Of a DNA stretch of 64,000 bases, positions 3,034 to 23,641 are shown one piece after another; positions within the stretch are counted from its first letter, which is position 1; every line of letters begins with the position of its first letter. The position numbers and the translations under genes were made by a program. This stretch comes from Ignavibacteriales bacterium. Lineage in GTDB: Bacteria; Bacteroidota; Ignavibacteria; UBA10030. The stretch is taken from assembly GCA_016186715.1 (NCBI GenBank), contig JACPLA010000021.1, forward strand, positions 640 through 64,639, given 5' to 3'. The notes under the pieces were generated by a model. That model was given only the letters and a program-made list of their open reading frames with translations, was not told the DNA's origin and searched no databases.

Positions 3034-3444
3034 CTACTTTGTGAGAGCCATCTTCATTACCTTTGTGAATTGCTTTCCGCTCTGACCCGTCGCAACGATG
3101 CGATAGAAGTACACACCGCTTCCCACCTTGCCTCCAGCGGCGTCTGTCGCATTCCATGTCAGTCTCTGGTAGCCGGCAGAATACTCCCGCTCGACAAGTC
3201 TGACAATTTCACGACCCAAAACGTCGAGGACCGTGACACTCACGAATGACGGCTCGGGGAGCGCAAACGAAATCTGCGTTTCAGGATTGAAGGGATTGGG
3301 AAAATTCTGACTTACTTGAACCTCCTTCGGAATTACAATAACTATTTCCTCATCAGCATGTCTTTCCACGGGTTCACCCTCTACAAACGCGACGTTGCTG
3401 TACGCAGAGACCAAACATCGTGGCCGAATCTCTACGCTGGCCAT
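3034..3444 (-). pseudogene. remnant of a T9SS-secreted protein: C-terminal sorting domain only
   Basis: 136-aa ORF consisting almost entirely of a Por/T9SS C-terminal domain (NFPNPFNPETQISFALPEPSFVSVTVLDVLGREI...YFYRIVATG). No functional passenger domain remains. Confidence 0.5.
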
Positions 3445-3640
3445 GGTCGTATCGACTTGAGGTGATCAGATTCGGAAGCAACGCCCTGACCAGAATCTCT
3501 TCTAAATAAAGACGTGGCGATACTGCTGGGATTTGATACATTGACAGATTACAACTGGGAGCGCAACTTTAGACGGCCTACACTCAGGACTACACGTATC
3601 TTCCCGCATTCCTTGAGCCGGGAAGCCTTGGAAGGGAAAT

Positions 3641-3820
3641 TATGTTTTACCCCCTTCTTCGCGGGGTGAGCCAAAAGGGACTAGCGGGTAAACTCAACAT
3701 TGATCCTAGTACCTTGGCGCGGTTGGAACGAGATGAAGGAAAACCGAGTTGCAAACTGAAAGAAAAGTTTATTGAGTTCTTTAAGAAAAGCCGCCTATGC
3801 AACGAGCGGATTGAAGAATA
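3641..3820 (+). pseudogene. 59-aa fragment matching the second HTH module of the tandem-HTH XRE family
   Basis: Translation MFYPLLRGVSQKGLAGKLNIDPSTLARLERDEGK... aligns with GITQKELARRIGIDPTTLSRLEKGKG of paralog A. The first HTH module is missing. Confidence 0.5.
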
Positions 3821-3897
3821 ACCAGAAAAAGGAGACCTGCAGAACTTTTGTGTGTCTGTAGCAGCAGGGGTAGGAAACGCGACTCGTGCATGCCAAG

Positions 3898-4773
3898 CTA
3901 GGAAAGGCTCCTGGATTGAGCATCAGATGCACACTCCTCGACGACTTTGTGTATGTGAGCTTGAACGGTTTGTGATTTAGACGCTTGCGATTCTGTCATC
4001 TCATGGATTGGCTGACCAGATCCACCGCGACGCACCGCGATGATTTCACTCATAACACTGAGTGCTATTTCTTCGGGTGTTAAGGCACCGAGATCAAGTC
4101 CTGCCGGCGTCCTGACACACGAAAGCCCCGAAGCAGGTACCCCGGCATCCGCGACGTAATCGAGTACGAGTTTTGCACGTTTCTTGCTTGCAATGAGGGC
4201 GACGTATGCAGCGTTGCCTTCGAGTGCGAGCTTGAGTGAAAGATGATCCTGCTTATGCTGCGTTGCAATGACGACGTAGGATTGACTGTCGATCTTTGTC
4301 TCACCGAACGATCCCTGAAATAGTTTGTCTGCTGTGGGGAAAGCTTCCGGCATTGCCGCAGGGCTATTCACCGTGACAGTGAAGTTCATTATTTTGCCGA
4401 TTGCCGCAATCGTCTCAGCAATTTTTCCGTGACCAATAATCACAAGTTTAGGTTTCGGCAAAATCGGTTCAATATAGACTTGCATAGTCCCTCCACATGG
4501 CATGCCGACGCCGAGAACCTCGTCGGTCATATCGATGGATATCATTCGCGTATTACCATCTTTGATGCTTTGTGCAGCCTCATAGCGCACAGTGCTTTCC
4601 GCACATCCCCCGCCAACCCAGCCATAGAGAAGCCGCTCGTCGGTGTCGATGATTGCTTTTGATCCCGGCTTCGCAGAGGATGAACCCTGGATATGCACAA
4701 CCGTCGCCACTGCGAATGGTTTTTCCGTCTTGCTCAGCTCAAAGAGCTTTTCAAAAAATTCCTTTGACATCAC
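3898..4773 (-). CDS. coxF: XdhC/CoxF-family molybdoenzyme maturation chaperone
   Basis: XdhC_CoxI N-terminal domain (FAVATVVHIQGSSSAKPGSKAII...WVGGGCAE) plus a Rossmann C-terminal domain. It lies inside the cox cluster. Confidence 0.8.
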   Translation of the reverse strand: MMSKEFFEKLFELSKTEKPFAVATVVHIQGSSSAKPGSKAIIDTDERLLYGWVGGGCAESTVRYEAAQSIKDGNTRMISIDMTDEVLGVGMPCGGTMQVYIEPILPKPKLVIIGHGKIAETIAAIGKIMNFTVTVNSPAAMPEAFPTADKLFQGSFGETKIDSQSYVVIATQHKQDHLSLKLALEGNAAYVALIASKKRAKLVLDYVADAGVPASGLSCVRTPAGLDLGALTPEEIALSVMSEIIAVRRGGSGQPIHEMTESQASKSQTVQAHIHKVVEECASDAQSRSLS

Positions 4774-4781
4774 TCATCCTC

Positions 4782-5078
4782 CTATCGAAGGAAAACGTCG
4801 ATTCCAAAATAGGGTAAGATCACAAATGCGAGAGTCACAGCGCAGCTTCCCAAGAAAAATACTTTATTAAACACAGTACCCCTGGCTCGAAAAGTCAAAT
4901 AGAATGAAATACCGAATGAGATCACCCCAGCGGCAAGTAGGATGTGACGATAAGGACTGAGGATCCACACAAGACTTGTTGAACCGAGACCGAACAGGGA
5001 ATAGAAAAAGGGAAGTGCACAACAAGGTCGTGAAAGAAACCCAAAGATGATTCCCGTGATAGTCGTCAGATTCTTCAA
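4782..5078 (-). CDS. small 2-TM membrane protein with vicinal Cys pair, MerF/MerT-like
   Basis: 98 aa. TM1 carries a CCALPF motif, as in MerT/MerF CCxxP. It is followed by LSPYRH and a second TM. Confidence 0.45.
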   Translation of the reverse strand: MKNLTTITGIIFGFLSRPCCALPFFYSLFGLGSTSLVWILSPYRHILLAAGVISFGISFYLTFRARGTVFNKVFFLGSCAVTLAFVILPYFGIDVFLR

Positions 5079-5094
5079 TTGCGGACTCCTTCCT

Positions 5095-5648
5095 TCATCC
5101 TAGTTCCCTCGTTTCCTGTTCATGTTGCCGGCGTATATTCACGATCTCGGCAAGGATACTGAGTGCAATTTCTTCAGGGGTGGATGCATAAATCTCCAAA
5201 CCAGCCGGCGATCTGACGCGTTTCAATTCTTCGTCGGACACACCGCCTGAACGTAGATGCTGAATCATTTCTGCACCACGTTTCTTACTCCCCAGTACCC
5301 CAATGTACCTTGCCTTTGTTTCAAGTGCTTGCGCCAGAGCATCTTCATCGTATTTGCCGCGACTCGCGATGACGATATACGACTCAAGTGAGACATCTGC
5401 TTTCCTCAAATCCAACTCCTGGATGGTGTCATCCACCTCCATGTCATCTTCTGAAAGAAACGGATCAATAACGGTGACGTGGAATTTGAGCACTTCCCTA
5501 GCTTTGCAAGCGAGGTCGCAACCGTATCACCTCCAATGACCACGAGCCTGGCGACATGTTCAGACGTCAAGACTGGATTCCTTGATGGAGGAAAATCTTT
5601 TGAAGTCATCCGCAGTGTCGATATCAACGAGAATGCTGGCGTCAGCAA
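5095..5648 (-). pseudogene. XdhC-like Rossmann-domain-only gene, interrupted by a frameshift near 5490
   Basis: Two overlapping frames. One (5406-5648) encodes LVVIGGDTVATSLAKLGK. The other (5095-5493) continues with HVTVIDP...GVLGSKKR...SPAGLEI. It overlaps the 3' end of mocA. Confidence 0.45.
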
Positions 5649-6234
5649 GGTTCACTGTGTGGATTTTTTTCGGATGGAGGCCGAAGAGAGATCGACAGCC
5701 AATGTCACCCGAGATTTGCATCATCTCGCCAAACAGCGAGCGATCAACTAGTACCGGATTCCCTCGAAATCCCTTATAGACGGGAAGAATGATCGGAGCT
5801 TTCTCTCGACGATATTCATCGGTCAATTGATTGATAATTGAAGGATTGAGAAAAGGCTGATCAGCCAACACGATCAATGCGGCCTCTGAGTCGGGTGCGA
5901 GAGACTGGAGACCGGCCTTGATCGACGTGCTCATTCCTTGCGCAAATACATCGTTGACGACGACTCTTGTTCGTTGGGCTCCACTATTCAGAGTAATCGC
6001 TTTCAGAATTTTTTCAGACTGATAACCGAGGACAAGGATTATCTCGCTCACACTCGAATCAGCCACCGTACGTATTGTGTGTTCCAGTAACGTGCAATTC
6101 CCTACTTTCATCAATTGCTTGAGGCTTCCCATACGCTTCGACATTCCAGCTGCGAGAATTATCGCCGAGACGAATGGTCGATTGACCGTCTCAATTCTTT
6201 GTGCAGTATGTTCTCGAGTTTCGAGCATGTTCAT
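5560..6234 (-). CDS. mocA: MocA/MobA-like molybdenum cofactor nucleotidyltransferase
   Basis: N-terminal ILAAGMSKRMG nucleotide-binding loop and the MobA-like NTP_transferase pattern. Confidence 0.75.
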   Translation of the reverse strand: MNMLETREHTAQRIETVNRPFVSAIILAAGMSKRMGSLKQLMKVGNCTLLEHTIRTVADSSVSEIILVLGYQSEKILKAITLNSGAQRTRVVVNDVFAQGMSTSIKAGLQSLAPDSEAALIVLADQPFLNPSIINQLTDEYRREKAPIILPVYKGFRGNPVLVDRSLFGEMMQISGDIGCRSLFGLHPKKIHTVNLADASILVDIDTADDFKRFSSIKESSLDV

Positions 6235-7250
6235 CCACCAAGTTGAAACATTTCTGCCCTTGTTGCATGAGCACCTGCTTCAAGAAGTTGAGCGCGCTCT
6301 TCAGAATATCGATCGGTTCTGTTGCTCCAAATCGATGCGATCAATTCCTTGATGCTCTCGTCGCTCGCTCCGGTTCTCAGATGAGTCTTGAGATCGTGTC
6401 CCTGACTTGCAAACAAGCACGTATAGAATTTTCCTTCTGCCGATAGTCTGATCCTTGCGCAATCTCCACAAAAAGGTTTTGTCACTGATGCGATGACTCC
6501 TATTTCGCCCTTCCCGTCCGTGTATCGATACCGCAGCGCGACCTCGCTCGGATAACTTCGCTCCAAAGGTTCGAGCGGCAATTCTTTGTCGATACGTCGG
6601 ATGATCTCATCAGCAGAAACGACATCATCCATCCTCCAACCGTTCAGAGTTCCTACGTCCATGTACTCAATAAATCGTAGAACATGTCCCCGTCGTTTGA
6701 AAAATCTCGCGAGGTCAACCAACGTATGGCCATTGACCCCTTTTTGAACAACAACGTTGATTTTGAGAGGCGAGAAACCGACCCTCGCAGCCGTTTCAAT
6801 TCCTTGGAGGACGCGCTCAGTCGTGAATCCTTGTCCGTTCATCTTGCCGAAGACTTCATCATCGAGTGAATGCAGACTCACGGTTATTCTATGGAGTCCT
6901 GCATCCTTGAGCGCCTGCGCTTTTTCAGTTAACAGGTATCCATTCGTTGTGAGAGCGAGGTCTGTCATTCCCTTGATCCCGGCCAGTTGGTAGACCAACA
7001 CCTCTATGTCATTTCTAAGCAAAGGCTCGCCACCCGTGAGACGGACCTTGGAGACCCCAAGATCAACAAAGATCTTTGCAACGCGAACGATCTCCTCGAA
7101 TGTCAGGATTTCGGTTTTCGGAAGAAACTCGTATCGCTCGCCAAACGTTTCAGCAGGCATGCAAAAAGGACACCGAAAATTACATCGGTCCGTGACCGAG
7201 ACCCGAAGGTCGTTGAGCGGTCTGCCGAATTTATCTTTGAGTTCAGACAT
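6231..7250 (-). CDS. moaA: GTP 3',8-cyclase MoaA (radical SAM)
   Basis: CNFRCPFC radical-SAM motif, MoaA-type length (339 aa) and a C-terminal Cys cluster. Confidence 0.9.
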   Translation of the reverse strand: MSELKDKFGRPLNDLRVSVTDRCNFRCPFCMPAETFGERYEFLPKTEILTFEEIVRVAKIFVDLGVSKVRLTGGEPLLRNDIEVLVYQLAGIKGMTDLALTTNGYLLTEKAQALKDAGLHRITVSLHSLDDEVFGKMNGQGFTTERVLQGIETAARVGFSPLKINVVVQKGVNGHTLVDLARFFKRRGHVLRFIEYMDVGTLNGWRMDDVVSADEIIRRIDKELPLEPLERSYPSEVALRYRYTDGKGEIGVIASVTKPFCGDCARIRLSAEGKFYTCLFASQGHDLKTHLRTGASDESIKELIASIWSNRTDRYSEERAQLLEAGAHATRAEMFQLGG

Positions 7251-7257
7251 GTTTTTT

Positions 7258-8256
7258 TTAACGATGTTTCATCTTGATGTATTGTTCGGGGTCCTTTTCA
7301 AAGGTAGACTTGCAATGGGCGGAACAGAAATAAAAAGTCCTTCCATTCAGCTTTGAAATATGCTTCGCTGTAGCAACGTTCACCATCATCCTACAAATAG
7401 GGTCTTCTTGCTCGGCCGGTTCGTTCGCCCGGTGTTTTGCAGTCTCTGGGCTTGCGTGAGCTGCAGCTGATCTGGTAACTTGAATTATCTCTGCAAGAAT
7501 GCTTACCGCAATCTCTCCGGGAGCCGCCGCTTTGATGTCCAAACCCGCCGGGACCTTCACATGCTTCAACTGGGAGGAGGAGAAACCTCGTCCCTGCAAA
7601 TACTCTGAAACCGCCTCCCATTTCTTCTTGCTGGCAACAAACGCAACGTACGCAGCGTCAAGGCTCAGCGCCTGCTCGAGCGCTCCCTCGTCATCTTCTC
7701 CTTGCGTTGCAACGACAATGGCAGAACGGGTAGATGATCTCTCCTCAAACGCCCTCATAAGCCCTACACCATGCCCCGACTGTTGGAAAATATCCACGTC
7801 TGCAAAATCTTCTCGACTTTCTTCCGGGGCCACAACTGCAACGCGATACGAGAGGGTCTTCGCGAGCGTTGCGAGCGTTTGGGCAACGGCTGACCGTCCG
7901 AAGATGAGCAGTTGTACTTTCGAAAGAATCGGTTCAATGAAAATATCCAAGGTTCCTCCACTGTGACACATCATCGTGTAACCGGTGATGCCATCGGAAG
8001 GCTCGGCGCCAACTGTCGGGCTGACACGAACAAACCGCGGGTTGCCGTCCTCGAGAGCTTTCATCGCTTCTTTGATCACGATCGGTTGAGCGCATCCCCC
8101 GCCAACCCAGCCGGATAACTTCCCATCACGGGAGATGAGAGCTCTGTCGCCCGGCTTTGCTGAGGTCGGACGTTCACACCGCACGACGGTGGCAACCGCG
8201 AATGGTTCATTCTTTTCCCGGAGTCGACTAACGAGTTTTAAGAAATCGTCAAACAT
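7258..8256 (-). CDS. XdhC-family chaperone fused to a C-terminal YHS/TRASH metal-binding domain
   Basis: XdhC_CoxI and Rossmann domains, followed by ...ICRMMVNVATAKHISKLNGRTFYFCSAHCKSTFEKDP (YHS-type). Confidence 0.8.
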   Translation of the reverse strand: MFDDFLKLVSRLREKNEPFAVATVVRCERPTSAKPGDRALISRDGKLSGWVGGGCAQPIVIKEAMKALEDGNPRFVRVSPTVGAEPSDGITGYTMMCHSGGTLDIFIEPILSKVQLLIFGRSAVAQTLATLAKTLSYRVAVVAPEESREDFADVDIFQQSGHGVGLMRAFEERSSTRSAIVVATQGEDDEGALEQALSLDAAYVAFVASKKKWEAVSEYLQGRGFSSSQLKHVKVPAGLDIKAAAPGEIAVSILAEIIQVTRSAAAHASPETAKHRANEPAEQEDPICRMMVNVATAKHISKLNGRTFYFCSAHCKSTFEKDPEQYIKMKHR

Positions 8257-8300
8257 AATTCAATCTTCACGCACTTCTGTGTTTTCATTTCTTTTTATCG

Positions 8301-9470
8301 TTAAGATAAATGATGCTCGAGTTGGAGAAGACTCTCCAAACTGTGCGCGGGCGCGAAAACGTCCGCGAAGGGGAGTGCAGCACTCATCCCGCGTGTGATT
8401 GGCTGGTACTCAGCAAGTCCAAGAAGAGGATTGAGCCAGATGAGCTTTCGGGCCCGACGCTTGATTGTTTGGAGTTGTTCTGTCAGCGCTTCAGGTTCAC
8501 CGGTGTCCCAGCCATCACTCATGATAATGACCAAAGAATTGCGCGAACGCAGTTTCCGAGCATGCAGCGTATTGAATTCCGCCAAACATTTACCGATGCG
8601 CGTGCCCCCGGACCAGCTCTCGACGTTCTGCGCAACCATCTGTAAAGCGTTGGAGAGTTGATGCGTTCGAAGTGCGCCTGAAATATCGGTTAGCCGCGTG
8701 CTGAAAACGAACGAATCGACGCGCTCAAAATACTGCTGCAGTGCATAGACGAATCGCAGGAGGAACAAGCTGTAGAGGTCCATCGATCCGCTGACATCTA
8801 GAAGCACGACCAGATTGATCTTTTGACGTTTTCTTTCCTTATAGTGCAGCGTCATCGGTTCTCCGCCGCGACTGAGGTTGGAACGAATCGTCCGCCTGAA
8901 ATCCAGACGGCCTCGTTCTCCATACTGTCGATACCTTCGCGTCAAGCGCTTGCTCATCTGTCGCCACAGCCGCAGGCAAAGTTGTTCCAGGAGAGGAAGG
9001 TCGGAAGCCGCCACCTCTGAGAAATCCATCTTTCTTAATCGCTCTTCTGCACTTGCTCCGGTGGTTGCCGTGAGATCGCCTTCCTCCTGGGACTTGCTGG
9101 CCTGCTCCAAAGCTCGGCGGTGTTCGTCTCCAATCACGGGCACTTCAATCCGAGAAGAAAGTACTTCCCTCTGCAGGTGGATTGTTTCAGTGGAGTTTCC
9201 CCAAAACTGTTCAAACAGCTGATCAAACTGTTCGTATTGTTCCCTTGAAGAGCAGAGGAGTGCGCGAAGCGAAGATTGAAATGCTTCGCGATCGGTAATC
9301 GTAACGAAGCGAGCAACTTCCAGGGCATCGATGGTTTCTTGTAAACCGACTTGAAAACTGTTTGCTCGCAAGAATCGGCAGAACTGAACGATCGTCTTGG
9401 TCACGATACCGTCGGAAAAGCCAGCACTTGCACGCACGGTCATGCTCTTTTGAGTCGGTTTCTTCATCAC
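8301..9470 (-). CDS. coxE: VWA-domain protein CoxE
   Basis: MIDAS motif LVVLLDVSGSMD. It sits immediately downstream of the MoxR ATPase within the cox cluster. Confidence 0.8.
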   Translation of the reverse strand: MMKKPTQKSMTVRASAGFSDGIVTKTIVQFCRFLRANSFQVGLQETIDALEVARFVTITDREAFQSSLRALLCSSREQYEQFDQLFEQFWGNSTETIHLQREVLSSRIEVPVIGDEHRRALEQASKSQEEGDLTATTGASAEERLRKMDFSEVAASDLPLLEQLCLRLWRQMSKRLTRRYRQYGERGRLDFRRTIRSNLSRGGEPMTLHYKERKRQKINLVVLLDVSGSMDLYSLFLLRFVYALQQYFERVDSFVFSTRLTDISGALRTHQLSNALQMVAQNVESWSGGTRIGKCLAEFNTLHARKLRSRNSLVIIMSDGWDTGEPEALTEQLQTIKRRARKLIWLNPLLGLAEYQPITRGMSAALPFADVFAPAHSLESLLQLEHHLS

Positions 9471-9500
9471 CTCATCGTCCTCGGTTCGCGTTTCAACATC

Positions 9501-10424
9501 TTAACTTTCGACTTGCGACAGGATGCTTGGAATATTTTCAGCCTTGAGTTTCGAAATATCTTCGTTCGATTTCAGAATACATCCCAGTGTTTCTTCCACG
9601 GTCATCTCGTCCAGCTTGGTTTTCTCAAGCGAGAGAAGGGCAGAAGTCCAATCAAGAGTCTCTGCAATGCCCGGCGGCTTCGAAAGATTTTTACCCCGCA
9701 CTGCTTGAATGAACTGGACGATTTGATTCGCCAACTCTCGTCCGATCTGCGGAAGTTTCTTGTGAACGATGTGCAGCTCCTTCTCAAGGCTTGGATAATC
9801 AATCCAATGATAGAGACAGCGCCTTCTCAAGGCGTCGCTTAACTCCCTTGTTCGATTAGAGGTGAGCACAACGTAGGGTACATGGGTCGCCTTGATTGTT
9901 CCCATTTCGGGGATTGTGATCTGAAAGTCGGAAAGAAGCTCCAGCAGAAATGCTTCGAACTCTTCATCCGCCCGGTCAATTTCGTCGATCAACAACACCG
10001 GCGAAGCATTTGTCGCACTAATGGCTCTCAGGAGCGGTCGCTCCAGAAGGAATTTAGCGCTGAAAATGTGTTTCTCTTTCTCTGCGATACTTGCTTCAGC
10101 ATGTTCCTGAATCTTGATGCTCAGTAACTGCTTCTGGTAATTCCATTCATAGACCGCCGAGTTGACATCCAGTCCCTCGTAACATTGGAGGCGAATGAGT
10201 TCCGTTCCGAGAAAAGAGGCTAACACATTCGCTGTCTCCGTCTTTCCGACGCCAGCGTGTCCTTCTATGAGCAGTGGTCTTTGAAGCTTGAGGAGAAGGT
10301 AGATGGCGGTGGCAAGAGGACGGTCGGCAACGTACTTTCGCTGTTCAAAGCCGCGCATCAAATTGTCAATATCGGAGAGGTGGTTCATTGGATTAAGGAA
10401 TTCTTTAGGCATCGAATTATTCAA
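9501..10424 (-). CDS. coxD: MoxR-type AAA+ ATPase CoxD
   Basis: Walker A GHAGVGKT and the MoxR architecture, 307 aa. Confidence 0.85.
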   Translation of the reverse strand: MNNSMPKEFLNPMNHLSDIDNLMRGFEQRKYVADRPLATAIYLLLKLQRPLLIEGHAGVGKTETANVLASFLGTELIRLQCYEGLDVNSAVYEWNYQKQLLSIKIQEHAEASIAEKEKHIFSAKFLLERPLLRAISATNASPVLLIDEIDRADEEFEAFLLELLSDFQITIPEMGTIKATHVPYVVLTSNRTRELSDALRRRCLYHWIDYPSLEKELHIVHKKLPQIGRELANQIVQFIQAVRGKNLSKPPGIAETLDWTSALLSLEKTKLDEMTVEETLGCILKSNEDISKLKAENIPSILSQVES

Positions 10425-10426
10425 AC

Positions 10427-11017
10427 CTAAGATGAAGTTGACTTTCCGAGGATACGGCCGAAGAACCGACCAATCACTTTGCCTGTTACACTCAGAACCA
10501 AAGGAAGAGCATTGACAGGCTGAGGGGTAGGTGCAAATGCGACTTCGCTCCCCGTCCCATTTTCTTGCGCCAACTTTGCTTGAAAAGATCTGGTGAACTG
10601 TTCGAAGACATGATTTGACACATCATCCATCATCCGCGAGCCGAACTGTGCAAGCCTGCCCGTTACCGTGATTTCCGTCGTGCCGGTGACTTCCGTTCTT
10701 CCCTCAGTCAACGAGCGAAGTTTTCCCACCATCTTCATCGTGGCGCCGCCGGAACCGCGAGGATCTTGCCCCTTACCAAGAAGTTCAATTTCATGAATTT
10801 GATTGTCGAGTCGTTCGATTTTCACCTCTCCATTAAATTGAGAAGTAATCGGCCCTACTTTGACGGTAATGGTCCCTTTGTACGTCCTATCGTCGATCGC
10901 TTCCGTGATCTGGGCTCCGGGCAGACAGCTTGCGACTTTTTTCAAGTCGCTAAGGAATGCCCACACCTTTTCAATCGGTTGTTTGACCTGAAACTGTTTT
11001 GTGCTGGTTGCATGCAT
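10427..11017 (-). CDS. coxG: SRPBCC-family CoxG
   Basis: 196 aa with a CoxG-like sequence pattern. It lies directly after coxL. Confidence 0.75.
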   Translation of the reverse strand: MHATSTKQFQVKQPIEKVWAFLSDLKKVASCLPGAQITEAIDDRTYKGTITVKVGPITSQFNGEVKIERLDNQIHEIELLGKGQDPRGSGGATMKMVGKLRSLTEGRTEVTGTTEITVTGRLAQFGSRMMDDVSNHVFEQFTRSFQAKLAQENGTGSEVAFAPTPQPVNALPLVLSVTGKVIGRFFGRILGKSTSS

Positions 11018-11150
11018 CTTGGCAGAATCCTGACTATGATATGGTAATAAAACAACAAAGAAGATACTGCATCCGTTCGGTTACGGACGCAGCATCTTCG
11101 ATGAGTACGATGAACTTTCCCTGCTTCTCAGCAGCATCGGATGAGCACGC

Positions 11151-13511
11151 TTACCGTTCCGCTGCGACGCCTTTCTCCTTCAGAATCTGCCACACCTTCC
11201 ACGGCGTCATGGGGATATCGATGTGTCGCACACCGAGATGCGCTAACGCATCGACGACCGCGTTGACAATGGCAGGTGGTGCGCCGACGGTCGCGGATTC
11301 GCCCACTCCCTTCGCACCGAGAGGATGATGAGGTGATGGCGTGCATGTCTTGTCCGTCTCCCACTTTGGAGTCTCTACGGCCGTGGGAAGAAGATAATCC
11401 ATGAAGCTCCCGCCTTGGATGTTTCCCTCTTCGTCGTAGTTGATCGCTTCGTACAATGCGGGCGCAAGTCCCATCGTCAATCCACCATGGATCTGACCTT
11501 CGACAATCATTGGATTGATGATGTTTCCGCAATCGTCCACCGCGACGAACCGGCGTACTTTCACTTCACCGGTCCCGCGGTCAATGTCTACGACACAAAT
11601 ATACGAACCAAACGGAAAGGTAAGATTCGGCGGATCATAATAGGAGACAGCCTCGAGACCCGCTTCCATTCCCTGAGGATGGTTCGTGTACGCCGCAAAC
11701 GCAATTTCCTGAATCGTTTTTGCTTTCTGAGGAGCCCCTTGCACGTAGAATTTTCCACGTTCCCAGACAAGATCTGCCTCACTGCATTCGAGGAGGTAGG
11801 CGGCAATCTTCTTCGCTTTGTCGCGGATTTTTCGAGACGCCATTGCTCCTGCCGCTCCTGCCGTGGGAGTCGAACGAGAGGCATATGTTCCCAGCCCGTA
11901 TGGCGCGGTGTCGGTATCCCCTTCTTCCACTTGAATGTCGTCAACGGGGATGCCGAGTTCTTCTGCAACGATCTGGGCATACGTTGTCTCGTGGCCCTGA
12001 CCTTGCGACTTCGTGCCAAATCGCGCAACCGCTTTGCCGGTGGGATGAATACGAATCTCACAGCTGTCGAACATCTTGATGCCAAGAATGTCAAACGTGT
12101 GGGAAGGTCCTGCGCCGACAATTTCCGTGAAGCTGCTGATTCCGATTCCCATCAGCTCTCCTTTCTTCCGCTTCTCGGCCTGTTCCTTTCGCAGCGCATC
12201 GTAACCGATGATCACTTTCGCCTTCTGGAGCGCCGCCTCGTAGTTGCCGCTGTCATATTCCCAGCCAAGCGCAGATTTGTAAGGGAATTTATTTGCGGGA
12301 ATAAAGTTCTTCATCCGCAATTCCGCCGGATCCATCTTCAAGTCGTGGGCAAGGACATCGACCATGCGCTCAATCGTGTGGACTGCTTCTGTGACTCGGA
12401 AGGAACAGCGATACGCGATTCCTCCGGGGGGTTTATTCGTATAGACACCATCTACTTCCGCAAAAGCTGTCTTAAAGTCGTAGGAGCCGGTTGCGATGGA
12501 GAACAGACCGGCAGGAAACTTTGATGGGTTCGCTGCGGCGTCGGCGTAGCCGTGATCAGCTATTGTCTTGATTCGAAGTGCCTGCATGGTTCCATCTTTC
12601 TTTGCAGCAATCTCGGCCGTGATGTGATAGTCACGAGCGAAGGAATCCGCCTGAATATTCTCCATGCGATCTTCGATCCACTTCACCGGCTTTCCGATCA
12701 GAACGGAGGCCGCCACCGCAATGACATACCCCGGATACACCGGCACCTTTCCACCGAATCCTCCGCCGATATCCGGAGAAATGATCTGAATCTTTTGTTC
12801 ACTGAGGCCAACGTGTCCCGCGACCAGAGCAAACACCGTCCTAATCGCGTGTGGCGCCTGGGTGGTCATCCAAACGGTAAGTTTCCCGCTGATCTTGTCA
12901 AAGCTCGCCACGCAGCCACATGTCTCGATTGAACAAACATGAATTCTGGGGAGGTACATGTCTTGCTTGACTGTCACATCTGCTTCCTTAAAAGCTGTCT
13001 CTGTTGCGGCCTTGTTACCAACCTCCCAATGGAAGATAAGATTGTCTTTTTTGTCTTTCTTGTCGGTTCGGAGGATGGGCGCACCGAGCTCCAGCGCTTT
13101 TTTCGGGTCCACAACCACGGGGAGCGGCTCATATTCTACTTCCACCGCCGCCGCACCGTCTGCAGCAATGTACCGGTCGGTGGCAATCACTCCCGCTACT
13201 TCCTGAGATTGGTACATCACCTTCTCAACCGGAAGAACCATCTGTGTGTCAGACATCAGCGTCGGCATCCAGTGCAGGTTGTATTGCTTCAGCATCTCAC
13301 CGGTTACGACGGCGAGGACACCGGGGATGGCCGTTGCTTTGGAGGTATCGATCTTTTTGATTTTCGCGTGTGCGTACGGGCTGCGGACGATGTCGAGGTA
13401 GAGCATCCCCGGCAATTTGACGTCGTCAACATAATTGCCCTTTCCCTGAATAAAGCGCGGATCTTCCTTGCGCTTCACGCTATGACCCATGCCTTGGATT
13501 TCAGTAGCCAT
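11151..13511 (-). CDS. coxL: form-I aerobic CO dehydrogenase large (molybdopterin) subunit CoxL
   Basis: 786 aa of the xanthine-dehydrogenase family. It contains the form-I active-site loop GGIAYRCSFR (the AYXCSFR signature). Confidence 0.9.
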   Translation of the reverse strand: MATEIQGMGHSVKRKEDPRFIQGKGNYVDDVKLPGMLYLDIVRSPYAHAKIKKIDTSKATAIPGVLAVVTGEMLKQYNLHWMPTLMSDTQMVLPVEKVMYQSQEVAGVIATDRYIAADGAAAVEVEYEPLPVVVDPKKALELGAPILRTDKKDKKDNLIFHWEVGNKAATETAFKEADVTVKQDMYLPRIHVCSIETCGCVASFDKISGKLTVWMTTQAPHAIRTVFALVAGHVGLSEQKIQIISPDIGGGFGGKVPVYPGYVIAVAASVLIGKPVKWIEDRMENIQADSFARDYHITAEIAAKKDGTMQALRIKTIADHGYADAAANPSKFPAGLFSIATGSYDFKTAFAEVDGVYTNKPPGGIAYRCSFRVTEAVHTIERMVDVLAHDLKMDPAELRMKNFIPANKFPYKSALGWEYDSGNYEAALQKAKVIIGYDALRKEQAEKRKKGELMGIGISSFTEIVGAGPSHTFDILGIKMFDSCEIRIHPTGKAVARFGTKSQGQGHETTYAQIVAEELGIPVDDIQVEEGDTDTAPYGLGTYASRSTPTAGAAGAMASRKIRDKAKKIAAYLLECSEADLVWERGKFYVQGAPQKAKTIQEIAFAAYTNHPQGMEAGLEAVSYYDPPNLTFPFGSYICVVDIDRGTGEVKVRRFVAVDDCGNIINPMIVEGQIHGGLTMGLAPALYEAINYDEEGNIQGGSFMDYLLPTAVETPKWETDKTCTPSPHHPLGAKGVGESATVGAPPAIVNAVVDALAHLGVRHIDIPMTPWKVWQILKEKGVAAER

Positions 13512-13543
13512 TGTTCGAATCTCCTTATGTTAAGACGAAAGCA

Positions 13544-14023
13544 TCATTTTTTTTCCGTCGCAATTTTTTCCGCCGCGTACCGAATCGCTTTGACGATATT
13601 GACATAGCCTGTGCAGCGGCAAAGATTTCCCGATATCCCCCATCGAATTTCTTCTTCCGAGGGATGAGAGTTGTTCTTCAGTAACGTGTAAGCACTCATC
13701 ATCATACCGGGCGTGCAAAAACCGCACTGGAGACCATGCTTTTCCCAGAAACCTTCTTGAATGGGATGGAGCGTTCCATTCTTTGCGAGACCCTCCACCG
13801 TAAGGACATCCCCTCCATCGGCTTGAACAGCGAGGACCGTGCAGGATTTTACCGCGCGTCCGTTAAGGACAATCGTGCAGGCACCGCAGTTGGTGGTATC
13901 ACATCCAATGTGAGTCCCAGTAAGGTTCAACACTTCTCTGACAAAGTGCACGAGTAACATCCGAGGTTGAACGTCGGCTTCATTCTTCACGCCGTTGACG
14001 GTCATTTGAATTCGGTGGTTCAT
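13544..14023 (-). CDS. coxS: CO dehydrogenase small [2Fe-2S] subunit CoxS
   Basis: CGACTV and GFCTPG iron-sulfur motifs, 159 aa. Confidence 0.9.
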
Positions 14024-14026
14024 GAT

Positions 14027-15601
14027 TTATTTCCCTCCTTTCGCACGTTCTACAGCTTGGTTGAGCGCGCGAACAGTCAGAGTCTTGACCATAGCTCGTT
14101 TGTACTCTGCAGGACCGCGAAGATCAGATGAGGGCTGCGAGGCTTTTGCTGCAAGGTCGCCCGCCTTCCCCATCAGATCGTCATCCGGTTTTTTCCCTCG
14201 CAATAATTCCTCTGCTTCCTTCGCCTGAATAACCGTAGGTCCAACGTTCGTCAATCCAATGCCGACCTTTTCTATCTTGTCACTCGTATCGAGCGTCAAT
14301 TGAACCGCTACGGCAGCAACGGCGAAATCCCCAACTTTTCGCTCAAGTTTAAAGTACGCGCCTCCGGTCCGTCCACCCGGAGTCCGCACACGAATTTCAG
14401 TAAGTATCTCATCCTGCTTGAGCGCTGTCTCAAACAATCCGGTAAAGAATTGGTTGATGGGAATTGTGCGCTCACCCTTGGCGCCCGTTACTACTACCTC
14501 TGCACCGAGAGCCACCATTGTTGCAGGATGATCATTGGCGGGATCCGCGTGAGCCAAATTTCCGCCAACGGTTGCCATGTTTCTCACAAGAGGATCGGCA
14601 ATGACTTTTGCAGTATCCGCGATGATCGGATACTTCGAACGAATCAGATCGGAAGCATCGAGGTCTGACTCGCGTGTCAGAGCGCCGATCCGGAGAAATC
14701 CTCCCGATTCTTTGATATAGCTCAGTCCATCGAGACGGTTGATGTCAATGAGCATTGGTGGCGTAGCCAACCTTAGTTTCATCATGGGGATGAGACTGTG
14801 GCCGCCGGCCAGAATCTTCGCGTTCTCTCCATGCTTTTGCAGCAGCGAGATCGCCTCGGAGAGCGTTGTGGGCCGGAAGTATTCAAATGAGGGCGGGATC
14901 ATTGTTGCCTCCATTCTTCCGTGAGGAGTTAAGTGAGAAAGGTAATACCTTCGGTAGTAAGGAACCTGCGGAATGTTTCCATCGATGTTGATAACGACTT
15001 TTACCCCCTCGAGCGACATCTCAAGAACCTTATCGATCAGTGTGTTCACCTGATCAGTGCCCATCCATTGTAACCTTCTGCGAACCAATAGCGCCGCAAG
15101 TCCATGCCAGGCCGACCAAATCGCAAGAGTTGTTGCTTCAGCATCAGATTGTCGATTTCCATTACGCGCCAGGCACGCCTGAACATCGTTCCGAAGGAGA
15201 TCTAACATTTGGTATGTTGTCTGTTTGACTTCTTCCTGGGAGCGATGTTGGGTGGGCTTCCGCATGATGAACATCAGGTCGTAATACTCCGGATACTTCA
15301 GAGCAAAATCAAAATAGATTCTGCCGTGCTTTCGAAGCCGCTCCAATGGTTCTGCTATCAACTCACGCTGTTGTTGAAACGCAACAAGTTTTTCGAAGGC
15401 ATCTTCGTATAAGTGGTAGAAGATGTCGTTCTTATCCTTAAAGTAGAGGTAAATCGAAGAGGGACTATATTCGATGTGGTGGGAGATTTTTCGGATGGTA
15501 ACGTTCTCGAATCCTTCTTCGAGAAATAAGCGCATCGCGGCATCAAGCACTTGCCTTTTGAATGCAGACTTTTCTCGCTGTTTTCGTTCGTCCAGGCCCA
15601 A
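14027..15601 (-). CDS. coxM: single ORF encoding a TetR-family HTH domain (aa 1-200) joined in frame to the FAD-binding medium subunit CoxM (from about aa 234)
   Basis: The N-terminus has a TetR HTH (VTIRKISHHIEYSPSSIYLYFKDKNDIF). CoxM begins at MIPPSFEYFRPTTLSEA...LAGGHSLIPMMKLRLA. There is no stop codon between the two parts. Confidence 0.8.
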   Translation of the reverse strand: MGLDERKQREKSAFKRQVLDAAMRLFLEEGFENVTIRKISHHIEYSPSSIYLYFKDKNDIFYHLYEDAFEKLVAFQQQRELIAEPLERLRKHGRIYFDFALKYPEYYDLMFIMRKPTQHRSQEEVKQTTYQMLDLLRNDVQACLARNGNRQSDAEATTLAIWSAWHGLAALLVRRRLQWMGTDQVNTLIDKVLEMSLEGVKVVINIDGNIPQVPYYRRYYLSHLTPHGRMEATMIPPSFEYFRPTTLSEAISLLQKHGENAKILAGGHSLIPMMKLRLATPPMLIDINRLDGLSYIKESGGFLRIGALTRESDLDASDLIRSKYPIIADTAKVIADPLVRNMATVGGNLAHADPANDHPATMVALGAEVVVTGAKGERTIPINQFFTGLFETALKQDEILTEIRVRTPGGRTGGAYFKLERKVGDFAVAAVAVQLTLDTSDKIEKVGIGLTNVGPTVIQAKEAEELLRGKKPDDDLMGKAGDLAAKASQPSSDLRGPAEYKRAMVKTLTVRALNQAVERAKGGK

Positions 15602-15713
15602 ATCGAAAAATCCTTTCAGAACTGAACGCTGTTCAGTTTCCGCACAGTGTACGATATTAAGAACCGTTTGTCAAGAGGGAGCTGTGTTTAAGATAAAAGC
15701 GGCAAGCGTTTCC

Positions 15714-16430
15714 TCAGATCCAACCAAAACGGATGAGAGTCTTGTTGACCCGCCAAGAAAATAGAGCTGCCATTCCGATAAGGACAATTGTGAGAACCGG
15801 ACTGAACGCTTGATAGACTTGCAATCCTACAACGATCGTTGTGATTACGATAAACAGGCAGAGACTTGCCAACCGCTTACGGAGGATTCGATGGGGCTTA
15901 AGCTCTCCGAAAAGTCCTTCCGGCACATTGGCATCAGAACTGACGGTCGCGATGAGTGCTTCGATTTTTGGCTGAAGCTTGAAATGAACGTACGAAAGCA
16001 ATATCATCAGTATGAACAAAAGAAGGACTTTTGTCAGCACAACCCAGTTTGCCCACAATGCCTCAATCCCCAGAGGACCGGCGAGTAGCAGTAGAATGCC
16101 GGTAACGAGTGCAGTCCATTGAAATACGTAACAGCGAATTGCTCCGTGTTGAATTATGTTTTCCATGTACCTGTCGGCAAAGTAATGAAAAGATGTTCCG
16201 AGAAGTGCCCGTTCGTTTACCGCAATGAGGTTAAATAGCGGTATCGACATGAAAACAAAGCTCAAGACATGCAAAAACTTTAAGAGATCATAAAGTAAAT
16301 GCATTGTAACCTCTTCTTTCTGTGTTAAGCATGAGATGGTAAATAAAGTCGACGGGCTGTTATTGGATAAACACCTAACAGAAAAGGAGGGCGTGGGCAC
16401 CATTGGCTGTCCCAGCCGCCGGCACTTCAC
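15714..16430 (-). CDS. polytopic membrane protein of unknown function at the head of the cox cluster
   Basis: Multiple hydrophobic helices. The start is likely the internal Met (MHLLYD...). Confidence 0.45.
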   Translation of the reverse strand: MKCRRLGQPMVPTPSFSVRCLSNNSPSTLFTISCLTQKEEVTMHLLYDLLKFLHVLSFVFMSIPLFNLIAVNERALLGTSFHYFADRYMENIIQHGAIRCYVFQWTALVTGILLLLAGPLGIEALWANWVVLTKVLLLFILMILLSYVHFKLQPKIEALIATVSSDANVPEGLFGELKPHRILRKRLASLCLFIVITTIVVGLQVYQAFSPVLTIVLIGMAALFSWRVNKTLIRFGWI

Positions 16431-16586: not shown

Positions 16587-17122
16587 TCACACAGAATAGA
16601 AGCTTCTATCCAGACTACTGTATTGAATGGCTTCGCTCAAATGCTCAGTCCTGATCTGATCACTTCCCACAAGGTCGGCAATGGTGCGTGAGACTTTCAA
16701 AATTCGGTCATAAGCCCTCGCCGAGAGGCCCAGCCGATTCATCGCCGTTTTCAGCAACTCTGCCCCCGCCGTATCGATCTGACAGAATTCCTTGATTTCC
16801 TTCGATTCCATGTCGGCGTTGCAATACAGGTCTTTTCGTTTTTCGAATCTGCCAGTTTGAACCCCCTCGCACGAACAACACGCTCACGTATGGCCGAGGA
16901 ATTCTCGCCCGAGCGCTTCGAGGAAAGCTCCGTGTATTTGACAGCAGGGACCTCGACGTGAATATCGATTCTGTCCAGCAATGGACCTGAAATCTTGCCA
17001 ACGTATTTCTGGATTTGCATCGGAGTGCACATGCATTCCTGATTCGGGTTTCCGTAATTGCCGCACGGACAGGGGTTCATTGCCTTTTTGCCATATTCGA
17101 CTTTCAGCGCCAAAACCATCAA
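16587..17122 (-). pseudogene. comM: comM/yifB (Mg-chelatase-like ATPase) C-terminal remnant, 5'-truncated and frameshifted
   Basis: Frames encode [46 protein letters not shown] and ...LSARAYDRILKVSRTIADLVGSDQIRTEHLSEAIQYSSLDR. The AAA+ N-terminal two-thirds is absent. Homology ends exactly where the HTH-paralog leader begins, near 17080. Confidence 0.75.
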
Positions 17123-17505
17123 AACTGCCTACTGTTCTGAACACTATCGGGGATCACATCAGAAAGCGACGGCTTGAGCTTGGACTTCTCCAGCGTGAGG
17201 TTGCAGACCGTCTCTCTGTCAAAGTCGACACCATTCTCAACTGGGAACACAACAGAACGGCACCAACGCTCCGATGCCTTCCAGGGGTGATCGCGTTCCT
17301 CGGTTACGATCCATCGGATGACAACCCAAGAACACTGGGCGAAAAGCTGATGAAATATGGGAAAAGTTGTGGCATGAGTCAAAAAGAAATGGCGAGCCGG
17401 ATTGGTATTGACGCAACAACGTTGAGCAGGTTGGAGAGAGATAAGGGCAGATGCTTTGATACGGTACTCAAGAAAGTTCATGACTTCTTGAACACGCATG
17501 AGTAA
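16981..17505 (+). CDS. tandem-HTH XRE-family regulator, paralog B
   Basis: Shares the leader (ttgcctttttgccatattcgactttcagcgccaaaaccatcaaaactgcctactgttctgaac) and the protein core with paralog A. The real start is probably downstream of 17100. Confidence 0.65.
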
Positions 17506-18168: not shown

Positions 18169-18231
18169 GCTATCAACTGTTGTGATCCAAGGTAGTCAAA
18201 GTGGGAAGGTAAATCAAGGACCCTGCTGTAA

Positions 18232-20487: not shown

Positions 20488-20514
20488 AATTACTCCTTGC
20501 TGAGTGATTCGGAA

Positions 20515-21956: not shown

Positions 21957-22035
21957 AATTCAGACCGACGTATTGTAATCGTAGCTCCCGCATTCGATGA
22001 CAGGCGAGCTTATTTTGAAGCAGTTATTTGTTCAA

Positions 22036-22956: not shown

Positions 22957-22971
22957 GGCCCGTTTCCTGAC

Positions 22972-23511: not shown

Positions 23512-23608
23512 AAGATTACTCCTTTCTTGAATGATGAAGGATTTTGTAAGTTGGGGGGACTTTAATCACTTGCCTAGAATACGTTTGTGAATTCAGTGTT
23601 TTCGGCAA

Positions 23609-23641
23609 ACAAAAAAACCCCAACCTTCGAAAAGATTGGGG
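23609..23641 (-). terminator. rho-independent terminator on the minus strand (ccccaatcttttcgaaggttgggg followed by a T7 run)
   Basis: Perfect 8-bp GC-capped stem plus a T-run when read on the minus strand. It lies upstream of the uptake-operon promoter. Confidence 0.45.

Follow-up and report, generated by a model that had tools for sequence, protein, structure and literature searches.

A form-I carbon monoxide dehydrogenase gene cluster in a groundwater Ignavibacteriales population and its probable origin

The locus described here raises the question of whether an Ignavibacteriales genome carries a complete form-I aerobic Mo-Cu carbon monoxide dehydrogenase (CODH) cluster and whether such a cluster was acquired as a discrete genomic island. 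The window (the whole stretch of DNA analyzed, 64,000 nucleotides) encodes on its minus strand, between 3898 and 15601, TetR, CoxM, CoxS, CoxL, CoxG, CoxD, CoxE, XdhC-YHS, MoaA, MocA-XdhC_C, a 98-aa membrane ORF, and XdhC. The original prediction of a complete form-I cluster with the order coxM-S-L-G-D-E plus two xdhC genes, moaA, and mocA on one strand was borne out, with every gene at its expected position and strand, and a TetR gene and a separate XdhC_C piece can be added to it. Judged from profiles (Pfam and TIGR), solved-structure comparison, and motifs, all of which agree, this is a complete and ordinary-looking form-I cluster, and the enzyme call is solid. We consider it probable that the window holds a complete minus-strand form-I operon of an Ignavibacteriales (FCB/Bacteroidota) groundwater population, which most likely derives from an old transfer and is not delimitable as a recent discrete island. 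The same DNA is already public in GenBank as a groundwater Ignavibacteriales MAG, in which CoxL is correctly named.

Structural genes and enzyme identity

The form-I Mo-Cu large subunit gene coxL (11151-13511, minus strand) encodes a protein scoring 1267 bits on TIGR02416 (cut-off 991), and it matches the solved Oligotropha CoxL (1ZXI/1N5W) with 1088 bits and 62.7% identity, compared with 476 bits for quinoline oxidoreductase 1T3Q. The diagnostic form-I loop AYRCSFR, which had been predicted, is exact at residues 366-372 (window 12396-12416), and this loop, the Gln of TTQAPH, and the Glu of GVGES all align to Oligotropha CoxL. Models for other families remained below their cut-offs (glyceraldehyde dehydrogenase 616/790, group-5 CODH model 525/950, XdhA 422/780), and a check for placement among form-II or other xanthine dehydrogenase-family enzymes came out as form I, the form-I equivalog being the only one passed. 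Form-II CoxL (AYRGAGR-type), 1T3Q, and glyceraldehyde dehydrogenase share the three-subunit Mo/FeS/FAD architecture and the Pfam domains with the window, but the window differs from form-II and xanthine-oxidase-family hydroxylases in its form-I Cys loop and M-S-L order.

The small subunit gene coxS (13544-14023, minus strand; Fer2_2, Fer2; GenBank MBI2618769.1) specifies two [2Fe-2S] clusters and retains all eight cluster cysteines (C41/46/49/61 and C100/103/135/137). The FAD-binding medium subunit gene coxM (14027-14899, minus strand; FAD_binding_5, CO_deh_flav_C) has a start, MIPPSFEYF, that agrees with the CoxM N-termini of the related loci L090, L083, and L085, to which it is 76-82% identical. 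Upstream lies a TetR-family regulator (15002-15601, minus strand; Pfam TetR_N and TetR_C_33 at residues 19-193 of a 524-aa ORF), which is found upstream of coxM in none of the relatives compared. The regulator has no stop codon, and its ORF (14027-15601) continues into coxM in the same frame; if the G5 run at 15004-15008 were one G shorter, the protein would end in ...LEG-stop. Further upstream, a membrane ORF (15714-16430, minus strand, likely ATG at 16304) has only a weak DUF2157 match, and its 15714-16304 portion has no match in any related locus; cox clusters do not contain it as a conserved element, which makes its membership here doubtful.

Maturation genes and comparison with known clusters

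The 133 nt that separate coxL from coxG contain a terminator-like hairpin (11060-11099, minus strand) with a 17-bp stem followed by a T-run, a consensus match only, in a region where the total of such sites is not above shuffled expectation; it may act as a partial terminator setting the structural genes apart from the maturation genes. The gene coxG (10427-11017, minus strand; SRPBCC/CoxG family, Pfam COXG) encodes a protein thought to couple the enzyme with the membrane and quinone pool (PMC4240915). It is followed on the minus strand by coxD (9501-10424), a MoxR-type AAA+ ATPase gene (AAA_5, AAA; Walker A GHAGVGKT, Walker B LLIDEID) that is 95% identical in L091, and by coxE (8301-9470, GenBank start 9467; MBI2618765.1), encoding a VWA-domain maturation protein (VWA_CoxE, 211 bits). 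The next gene (7258-8256, minus strand; MBI2618764.1) encodes an XdhC protein with a C-terminal YHS domain (XdhC_CoxI, XdhC_C, YHS), a fusion that 59 of 60 related form-I loci share; it sits where Oligotropha has CoxF and is proposed to be a copper-delivering CoxF equivalent. The roles of CoxD, CoxE, CoxF, and CoxG come from mutant work (PMC4240915).

Genes for the molybdenum cofactor (Moco) continue on the minus strand with moaA (6231-7250; Radical_SAM, Mob_synth_C; MBI2618763.1), encoding the GTP 3',8-cyclase of the first Moco step, and a MocA-XdhC_C fusion (5095-6234; NTP_transf_3, TIGR03310) that is split here into mocA (5560-6234), with a complete Moco cytidylyltransferase domain, and an XdhC_C piece (5095-5493). 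Compared with the Logan contig L118, the fusion lacks 68 bp at 5566/5567 and 1 bp at 5495/5496, and intact fusions of 343-402 aa occur in L081, L083, L085, and L118. A second full-length XdhC-family Moco chaperone (3898-4773; XdhC_CoxI, XdhC_C; MBI2618760.1) brings the XdhC complement to two full genes and the C-terminal half of the split fusion. The 98-aa ORF (4782-5078, minus strand) has three predicted membrane helices, a CC motif, and a sub-threshold MerT likeness (E = 0.046, 14 bits); it has no homologue in related loci and was left out of the GenBank annotation (accessions 760 and 761 are consecutive). The description of the cluster as self-contained for Moco biosynthesis goes too far, with moaA and mocA the only pathway genes in the window, which has no homologues of MoeA, MoaD, MoaE, or MoaC/B and lacks three steps (MoaC, MoaD/E, MoeA/MogA). 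A terminal oxidase was likewise not found in the window.

By family membership, CoxL would bind molybdopterin cytosine dinucleotide and a [CuSMoO2] center whose Cu would be held by the Cys of AYRCSFR, and would catalyze CO + H2O -> CO2 + 2H+ + 2e-, with electrons passing through the two CoxS [2Fe-2S] clusters to the CoxM FAD and CoxG helping their transfer to the membrane quinone pool and aerobic respiratory chain. In the proposed maturation route, MoaA would begin Moco synthesis, MocA would add CMP, and the XdhC proteins would hold and insert the cofactor; Mo sulfuration would be driven by CoxD (AAA+), and Cu(I) insertion would fall to CoxE (VWA) together with the XdhC-YHS protein that occupies the CoxF position. 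The upstream TetR protein probably represses the operon, and the maturation genes may be expressed at a lower level because of the hairpin 3' of coxL.

The Oligotropha (Afipia) carboxidovorans OM5 cluster on plasmid pHCG3 has the same loop, (V/I)AYRCSFR, M-S-L order, and subunit domains, and the window shares its maturation set of AAA+ CoxD, VWA CoxE, an XdhC-family protein encoded downstream of coxE, and CoxG (PMC4240915). The gene order differs (MSL-G-D-E-F(like) in the window, MSL-D-E-F-G in OM5), and, unlike OM5, the window has a YHS domain on the protein in the CoxF position and carries moaA, the MocA-XdhC_C fusion, and a second xdhC inside the cluster, with TetR upstream where OM5 has coxBC. 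No equivalents of the OM5 genes coxH, coxI, and coxK were recognized in the window, which lies on a chromosomal-looking contig where no plasmid genes were seen, in contrast to the plasmid location in OM5. Most of the best CoxL matches also differ from the window in having the maturation genes upstream (xdhC-mocA-xdhC_YHS-coxD-E-G-MSL). The window's order, M-S-L-G-D-E-xdhC_YHS-(moaA)-MocA/XdhC_C-xdhC, is shared by L118 and L091 (same or near population), L090, L081, L083 (GCA_974446475.1), and L085. These syntenic relatives have a GC content of 0.485-0.51 and accessory proteins 55-95% identical to those of the window, and they lack its TetR gene, upstream membrane ORF, and 98-aa ORF; L091 additionally differs from the window in that a PDDEXK_3 gene separates its coxD from coxE.

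Flanking sequences and host link

Four copies of an HTH gene family occur in the first 25 kb, all on the plus strand. Copy 1 on the left flank (2521-2967) is a double XRE-HTH gene with two HTH_3 stretches; copy 2 (3496-3791, identified by paralogy) is decayed, convergent on xdhC, and missing 22 bp at ~3595 that are present in L118; copy 3 on the right flank (17068-17505) has a leader that is the antisense of a comM remnant; and copy 4 (24241-24774, identified by paralogy) lies at a compositional boundary. Copies 1 and 4 have a 126-nt exact direct repeat in common (2755-2880 = 24472-24597). The predicted paralogy of the HTH flanks is therefore upheld, but a bracketing pair is not, since the family has four copies. 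The gene debris reported around the cluster is real and comprises, besides the HTH fragment, a T9SS-type C-terminal sorting-domain remnant (3034-3444, minus strand; FlgD_ig 30.5 bits, Por_Secre_tail sub-threshold at 23.2 bits) and a truncated comM pseudogene (16587-17122, minus strand). The latter consists of the 3' third only, in two reading frames (Mg_chelatase profile positions 155-206, with Mg_chelatase_C in another frame), and ends where HTH copy 3 starts; the comM 5' part is nowhere in the window.

The same GenBank contig (65,162 bp) encodes LpxC-FabZ, LpxD, BamA, and SurE. L118 is 99.9% identical to the window from coxL through xdhC and the HTH fragment into the T9SS remnant, differing by three deletions in the window (68, 1, and 22 bp) and almost no SNPs, and a second Ignavibacteriales MAG encodes a MoaA at least 90% identical. 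For the right-hand junction (cox, comM remnant, HTH copy 3, B12 operon), no independent assembly support was found. The adjacent BtuB has its best named matches in Ignavibacteriae/Bacteroidetes (66-75% identity), and an isochorismatase on the low-GC3 side is 85% identical to that of L087.

Origin of the cluster

The top 80 species representatives matching CoxL (80-86% identity) belong to Methylomirabilota, Acidobacteriota, Gemmatimonadota, Myxococcota, Armatimonadota, Chloroflexota, Pseudomonadota, and Calditrichia, with no Ignavibacteria among them, and a neighbor-joining CoxL tree (without support values) is scrambled relative to taxonomy. In its identity to MAG proteins of at least eight phyla (80-91%) and its non-taxonomic tree, the window CoxL resembles the mixed-phylum clades described as "mixed 1/2" (Cordero et al., 2019, PMC6794299) and clades III/IV (PMC13240472), to which it is likened by identity and mixed taxonomy and in which Bacteroidota members have already been reported (PMC6794299, PMC13240472). 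Plasmids of many taxa carry form-I coxL. Published work describes the spread of the enzyme as both horizontal and vertical (PMC6794299). Because the cluster belongs to this mixed-phylum, long-spreading form-I lineage, its presence in an FCB genome most likely traces, as far as sequence can indicate, to an old inter-phylum transfer. In composition the cluster now matches the low-GC3 region around it, which is at least 25 kb long, is scarred by rearrangements, and also carries a native-looking B12-uptake operon. The view that aerobic CO oxidation is a notable trait for an FCB-type organism was overstated, given that published work already records form-I coxL from Bacteroidota and from mixed-phylum clades (PMC6794299, PMC13240472) and that GenBank already names this protein correctly.

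The original prediction of a probably horizontally acquired island stands in part, as regards foreign kin of CoxL beside an Ignavibacteria-like BtuB, the composition relative to 27-64 kb, and the debris. The stronger reading, that 3898-16430 was inserted recently as a discrete unit bounded by HTH paralogues and debris, is weakly supported and in our judgment unlikely. Truncated genes (the T9SS and comM remnants) adjoin HTH copies on both sides, comM is an integration hot spot in other bacteria, the 126-nt repeat brackets the region, and the nearest named kin of CoxL lie outside the FCB group. The GC3 of the cox genes (0.527) also differs from the 27-64 kb core (0.639; p = 1.4e-6, a comparison within the window, in which either part may be the atypical one), but it equals that of the first-25-kb neighbors (0.521, p = 1.0), and the shift falls at ~25-27 kb and not at the cluster borders. 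Against insertion as a unit, moreover, no integrase, transposase, recombinase, or tRNA was found in 1-27 kb and no att-like direct repeats at 3.9 and 16.4 kb, and the four HTH copies are unpaired around cox. Three Ignavibacteria relatives have the B12 module and lack cox genes within 10 kb of it, but the surroundings of the module vary even among these relatives, which makes the missing cox genes poorly informative. GC averages 0.651 across the loci that best match CoxL but is 0.506 in the cluster. These loci also differ in gene order, and their accessory proteins show just 30-60% identity to those of the window; the low GC and diverged accessory genes together exclude a recent import from the best-matching phyla.

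An old transfer also accounts better for the locus than an assembly or binning artefact, in which a cox segment of another organism would have been joined at a repeat such as an HTH copy. This is very unlikely, even though the GC3 step is sharp and lies beside HTH copy 4 with its repeat shared with copy 1, the best named CoxL matches are non-FCB, and the three deletions relative to L118 with few SNPs make local assembly errors possible. The low-GC3 side carries the FCB-type BtuB, which shares 73-75% identity with proteins of Ignavibacteriae/Bacteroidetes MAGs, the isochorismatase, and the T9SS-type remnant; L118 independently links cox to both the HTH fragment and the T9SS remnant; the same moaA occurs in the second MAG labeled Ignavibacteriales; two direct repeat copies flanking unique sequence leave an unambiguous assembly path; and the high-GC phyla that match CoxL differ widely from the cluster in GC. 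Very unlikely, too, is a locus that does not encode a working CODH, be it a molybdenum hydroxylase of form II or another type, or a decaying, non-functional cluster. The TetR read-through into coxM and the MocA-XdhC_C split in this assembly could mean decay, pseudogenes surround the cluster, and several Moco genes are not nearby, yet are adjacent in L081, which extends into moeA-moaD-moaE-moaC/B. However, CoxL passes the form-I equivalog, fails all other models, and has the exact loop; coxM, S, L, G, D, E, xdhC-YHS, moaA, and xdhC are full-length and 76-95% identical to the versions in relatives; and the split fusion, whose MocA domain is complete here, is intact in L118 of the same population.

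Identity of the enzyme and layout of the cox cluster

On sequence grounds, coxL (11151–13511, minus strand) is identified as the gene for the large subunit of a form-I aerobic Mo-Cu CO dehydrogenase (CODH). With 1267 bits, its product clears the 991-bit cut-off of the form-I equivalog TIGR02416, whereas it falls below the cut-off on every other model; it matches the solved CODH large chains 1ZXI, 1N5W, 1FFU, and 8UEM at 1070–1088 bits, against 476 bits for the next family, quinoline oxidoreductase. Identity to the Oligotropha protein is 62.7% over 777 aligned residues, with the TTQAPH Gln, the GVGES Glu, and the loop that binds Cu all in alignment. The loop AYRCSFR, which the original prediction had named as diagnostic of form I, is present exactly at residues 366–372 (window 12396–12416) with its Cu-ligating cysteine, and IAYRCSFR (residues 365–372) is aligned to VAYRCSFR of 1ZXI and 1N5W. 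CoxS keeps all eight cysteines (8/8) for two [2Fe-2S] clusters, and Walker A and B motifs are present in CoxD. A reading of CoxL as a form-II enzyme or another hydroxylase is therefore refuted by the model and structure scores and the aligned active-site residues, together with the CoxS cysteines and the CoxD motifs. The structural genes run in the form-I order coxM-coxS-coxL, all on the same strand and separated by 3 and 32 nt, whereas form II has the order S-L-M, as reported by King and Weber in 2007.

The cluster had also been predicted to be complete, and the ORF map and Pfam/NCBIfam scans bear this out: coxMSL and the coxD, coxE, coxF-like, and coxG genes are all present as a minimal working set, and all genes are co-oriented on the minus strand. 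Read along that strand, a membrane ORF (15714–16430, with the ATG likely at 16304 and a weak DUF2157 match as its sole match) is followed by a TetR regulator gene (15002–15601), coxM (14027–14899; FAD_binding_5 and CO_deh_flav_C), coxS (13544–14023; Fer2_2), coxL, coxG (10427–11017), coxD (9501–10424; AAA+, AAA_5/AAA), coxE (8301–9470; VWA_CoxE), and a gene for an XdhC protein with a YHS domain (7258–8256; XdhC_CoxI, XdhC_C, and YHS) in the coxF position, so that coxD, coxE, and this xdhC lie directly downstream of, and linked to, the structural genes. They are followed by moaA (6231–7250), mocA (5560–6234), an XdhC_C-only ORF of 132 aa (5095–5493), an unannotated membrane ORF of 98 aa (4782–5078), and a second full-length xdhC (3898–4773). 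Gaps between the genes range from −4 to 66 nt with three exceptions, namely 112 nt from the membrane ORF to TetR, 102 nt forming an in-frame linker from the TetR domain to coxM, and 133 nt downstream of coxL. The coxL–coxG gap holds a hairpin with a 17-bp stem followed by a T-run (11060–11099), a pattern match that may attenuate transcription of the maturation genes.

Small variations in gene content were also observed. The 98-aa ORF (4782–5078, minus strand), which sits between the XdhC_C piece and xdhC, has a CC motif within its first predicted membrane helix; its likeness to MerT is sub-threshold (E = 0.046), GenBank gives no annotation for it, and no homologue was found in related cox loci. 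In L091, a locus of the same or a near population with 93–95% nucleotide identity, coxD and coxE are separated by an inserted PDDEXK_3 gene (L091:1097–1492), so small insertions do occur within the cluster.

By family membership and the Oligotropha literature, from which the roles of CoxD, CoxE, and CoxF are taken (PMC4240915), CO would be oxidised at the [CuSMoO2]-MCD centre of CoxL, and electrons would pass through CoxS to the FAD of CoxM and on to the quinone pool, with CoxG helping the enzyme to reach the membrane. Mo sulfuration would be driven by CoxD, and Cu(I) would be inserted by CoxE and the XdhC-family protein encoded after coxE. That the enzyme oxidises CO with Cu and Mo-MCD as its cofactor is a prediction from family membership. 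Heterologous expression has precedent in Oligotropha genes expressed in Ralstonia (PMC6011924). If the enzyme is active, trace CO could provide Ignavibacteriales members with extra energy where groundwater is oxic or micro-oxic. Potential CO oxidisers are already numerous; this would add one more lineage to them and broaden slightly what is known of the metabolism of the class, with no change to the understanding of the enzyme itself, of how it matures, or of how it has spread horizontally.

Accessory genes and differences from a closely related contig

Of the 60 related form-I loci with an xdhC (L001–L085 range, at least eight phyla), 59 encode an XdhC protein that ends in a YHS domain, the sixtieth being cut by a contig end; the fusion is therefore a conserved component and no peculiarity of the window. 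Its place in the window and in the syntenic relatives is that of CoxF in Oligotropha, which makes YHS a concrete candidate for a copper-delivering domain; a literature search found no paper linking YHS, XdhC, and CODH maturation.

The original prediction listed moaA, mocA, and two xdhC genes, and claimed that the cluster contains its own Moco biosynthesis genes. The inventory stands for moaA, mocA, and the two full-length xdhC genes, but the small 132-aa "XdhC" piece is no separate gene. This ORF was considered as a stand-alone gene fragment and rejected, as it is half of a MocA-XdhC_C fusion, which forms a single protein of 343–373 aa in the syntenic relatives L081, L083, and L085 and an intact protein of 402 aa in L118, a Logan contig from run SRR12113385 representing the same population as the window. 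The fusion is thus recurrent in the syntenic subgroup to which the window belongs. Self-containment for Moco synthesis does not hold: L081 carries genes for MoeA, MoaD, MoaE, and MoaC/MoaB directly after xdhC, and no homologue of any of these was found anywhere in the window. No Moco riboswitch was found in the cluster by Rfam, the sole match being a cobalamin riboswitch outside it.

L118 is 99.9% identical to window 12687–5565 and 98.9% identical onward to 3385, with a single SNP over 3385–5160. Compared with this contig, the window lacks 68 bp at 5566/5567, 1 bp at 5495/5496, and 22 bp at ~3595 in an HTH fragment, and two of these three deletions disrupt the MocA-XdhC_C gene. These deletions may be strain variants or strain-level decay, or else local assembly errors. 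A further irregularity concerns the TetR gene at its junction with coxM (14900–15010, minus strand): no stop codon closes its ORF, which continues in frame through a 34-codon linker into coxM, giving an ORF of 524 aa in which the TetR_C_33 match ends at residue 193. With one G fewer in the G5 run at 15004–15008, the reading would end "...LEG-stop", which suggests a 1-nt insertion in the TetR gene. Since CoxM of the relatives begins at the same MIP(A/P)SFEY, coxM is taken to have a start of its own. For none of four candidate CoxM products (among them 290-aa and 294-aa forms and the read-through ORF of 524 aa) does the protein collection contain an exact match, and exact look-ups of CoxL, isochorismatase, CoxM, and MocA returned no record, probably due to differing called starts or pseudogene flags.

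Ancestry, borders, and host of the cluster

Horizontal acquisition, as originally proposed, is likely in the sense of an old ancestry and unlikely as a recent, discrete insertion. Among the best 80 species representatives for CoxL (80–86% identity), none belongs to Ignavibacteria (0/80); the phyla represented are Methylomirabilota, Acidobacteriota, Gemmatimonadota, Myxococcota, Armatimonadota, Chloroflexota, and Pseudomonadota, with one member of Calditrichia. In an NJ tree, the window CoxL and three metagenome sequences (89–91% identity) form their own branch within a star-like radiation that ignores taxonomy. In contrast, the best named matches of BtuB, whose gene lies 2 kb rightward of the cluster, come from Ignavibacteriae and Bacteroidetes metagenome-assembled genomes (MAGs; 66–75%), a difference in affinity that is indicative, since named matches make up only about one quarter of the hits and the comparison stands on these and not on a reconciled tree. 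Form-I coxL is also found on plasmids in many taxa, and spread of the enzyme by both horizontal and vertical routes is the published view (PMC6794299).

The CoxL identity of 85% to Acidobacteriota and Gemmatimonadota could be taken as a sign of recent transfer, but this was rejected. In the same best-CoxL loci, CoxM is only ~60%, CoxD ~55%, CoxE ~35%, XdhC ~40%, and MocA ~30% identical, the maturation genes lie upstream of coxMSL in most, and mean GC is 0.651 against 0.506 in the window cluster, a gap of 0.15. The loci that share the gene order of the window (L081, L083, L085, L090, and L091) have a GC of 0.485–0.51, with CoxM 75–82%, CoxD 70–95%, and CoxE 58–93% identical, far above the best-CoxL loci. 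Because CoxL is so constrained, its identity carries little information, and because accessory identity, gene order, and GC all differ, any transfer from the high-GC phyla is old. Old horizontal ancestry of the cluster is likely.

The further claim of a discrete island is unlikely to hold. Composition does differ between the cox region and the 27–64 kb region, with third-codon-position GC (GC3) of 0.527 in 13 cox-region genes and 0.639 in 24 genes at 27–64 kb (p = 1.4e-6), but the cox value equals that of its neighbours (0.521 across the remaining 10 genes within the first 25 kb, p = 1.0), so that the compositional step lies at ~25–27 kb and not at 3.9 or 16.4 kb. Tetranucleotide profiles agree with this pattern. 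As the baseline was drawn from genes inside the window, GC3 alone does not define an atypical block, and the low-GC3 block takes in a native-looking B12 operon. No integrase, transposase, or relaxase Pfam family was found in any ORF of 1–27 kb, no tRNA was found, and direct repeats are absent from the borders of the cluster. The three genomes nearest by BtuB (L087–L089, 72–75% identical) carry the B12 module with no cox genes within 10 kb, which is weak evidence of absence because only that module is shared, with no other synteny to the window. A metagenome scan with CoxE recovered relatives at 60% identity or less only, and no close relative.

A chimeric contig would also explain a cox cluster with foreign affinities, but this is unlikely, as FCB-type genes lie on both sides of every junction and the GC of the cluster is unlike that of the best CoxL-matching phyla. 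The core genes of this type on the contig are an LpxC-FabZ fusion, LpxD, BamA, SurE, ClpB, and citrate synthase; MoaA is at least 90% identical in a second MAG labelled Ignavibacteriales, and L118 independently links coxL through xdhC to the HTH fragment and the T9SS remnant. BtuB was found in the same sequencing run on a 3.2-kb contig, but this contig ends within the gene for isochorismatase, short of the cox/comM/HTH3 junction (16.3–17.6 kb), for which there is no independent support. The bifunctional LpxC-FabZ gene (31696–33144, minus strand) lies inside an lpxD/bamA/surE core block and fits an FCB-group host.

The contig (65,162 bp, from a MAG labelled Ignavibacteriales bacterium) is already public in GenBank. 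Exact look-ups returned MBI2618760 (XdhC), 761 (132-aa XdhC_C), 762 (194-aa MocA), 763 (MoaA), 764 (XdhC-YHS), 765 (CoxE), and 769 (CoxS); CoxL is 768 by numbering and correctly bears the name "carbon-monoxide dehydrogenase large subunit". The cluster is a new lineage member of a well-known system. Aerobic CO oxidation had been called notable for an FCB-type organism, which is overstated, form-I coxL having been reported in the phylum (PMC6794299; PMC13240472). A literature search found no paper linking Ignavibacteria to form-I CODH.

HTH paralogues and neighbouring modules

The original prediction placed the cluster between paralogous HTH regulator genes and gene debris. Both are present, but the HTH genes form a four-copy family that does not delimit cox. 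The four paralogues (copies 1–4, all on the plus strand) lie at 2521–2967, 3496–3791, 17068–17505, and 24241–24774; the 5' end of copy 2 adjoins a truncated minus-strand T9SS-type remnant, that of copy 3 a truncated minus-strand comM remnant on one side of the cluster, and copy 1 adjoins an ORF without family assignment. An ORF at 1931–2455 was considered as response-regulator debris and dropped, as it has no Pfam support. A leader of ~55 nt is common to copies 1 and 3 and, more weakly, 4 (17027–17083 vs 2487–2545, and ~24230–24290), and at copy 3 it is the antisense of truncated comM coding sequence (19 residues). The paralogues seem to have been copied along with part of comM, which may once have served as an attachment site. 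Copies 1 and 4 are otherwise ~87% identical and share an exact direct repeat of 126 nt (2755–2880 and 24472–24597), which may reflect an effect of the assembly or gene conversion in recent time. Separated by 21.7 kb, the two repeats enclose the cox and B12 modules and could mediate deletion of the whole block.

A cobalamin riboswitch (RF00174, 91 bits, 23701–23917, minus strand) stands at the head of the B12 operon to the right of the cluster (17569–23511, minus strand). The operon encodes DUF6580, Peripla_BP_2, two Diphthami_syn_2 proteins, a BtuB-like TonB receptor, and isochorismatase, a content that looks like B12 uptake. An ORF of 150 aa that overlaps the riboswitch (23587–24039, plus strand) is probably spurious.

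The HTH/comM pattern points to a recombination-prone region, possibly with relics of comM-targeting elements. A bolder reading, which we regard as improbable, is that the first 25 kb consists of three cargo modules in tandem, of which one is decayed and the others are the cox operon and the riboswitch-controlled B12 operon, each with a double-XRE HTH gene at its head and a ~55-nt comM-derived leader, left by comM-targeting integrative elements that would move whole metabolic operons among Ignavibacteria. If this were true, the cox module would be mobile cargo giving trace-CO respiration to a lineage generally seen as facultatively anaerobic organoheterotrophs. Elsewhere in the window, two direct repeats of ~120 nt (41422–41543 and 41962–42074; 83% identical), each internally palindromic, lie between ClpB-like and DPP-IV genes, and further self-complementary stretches occur at 29082–29292 and 63268–63321.
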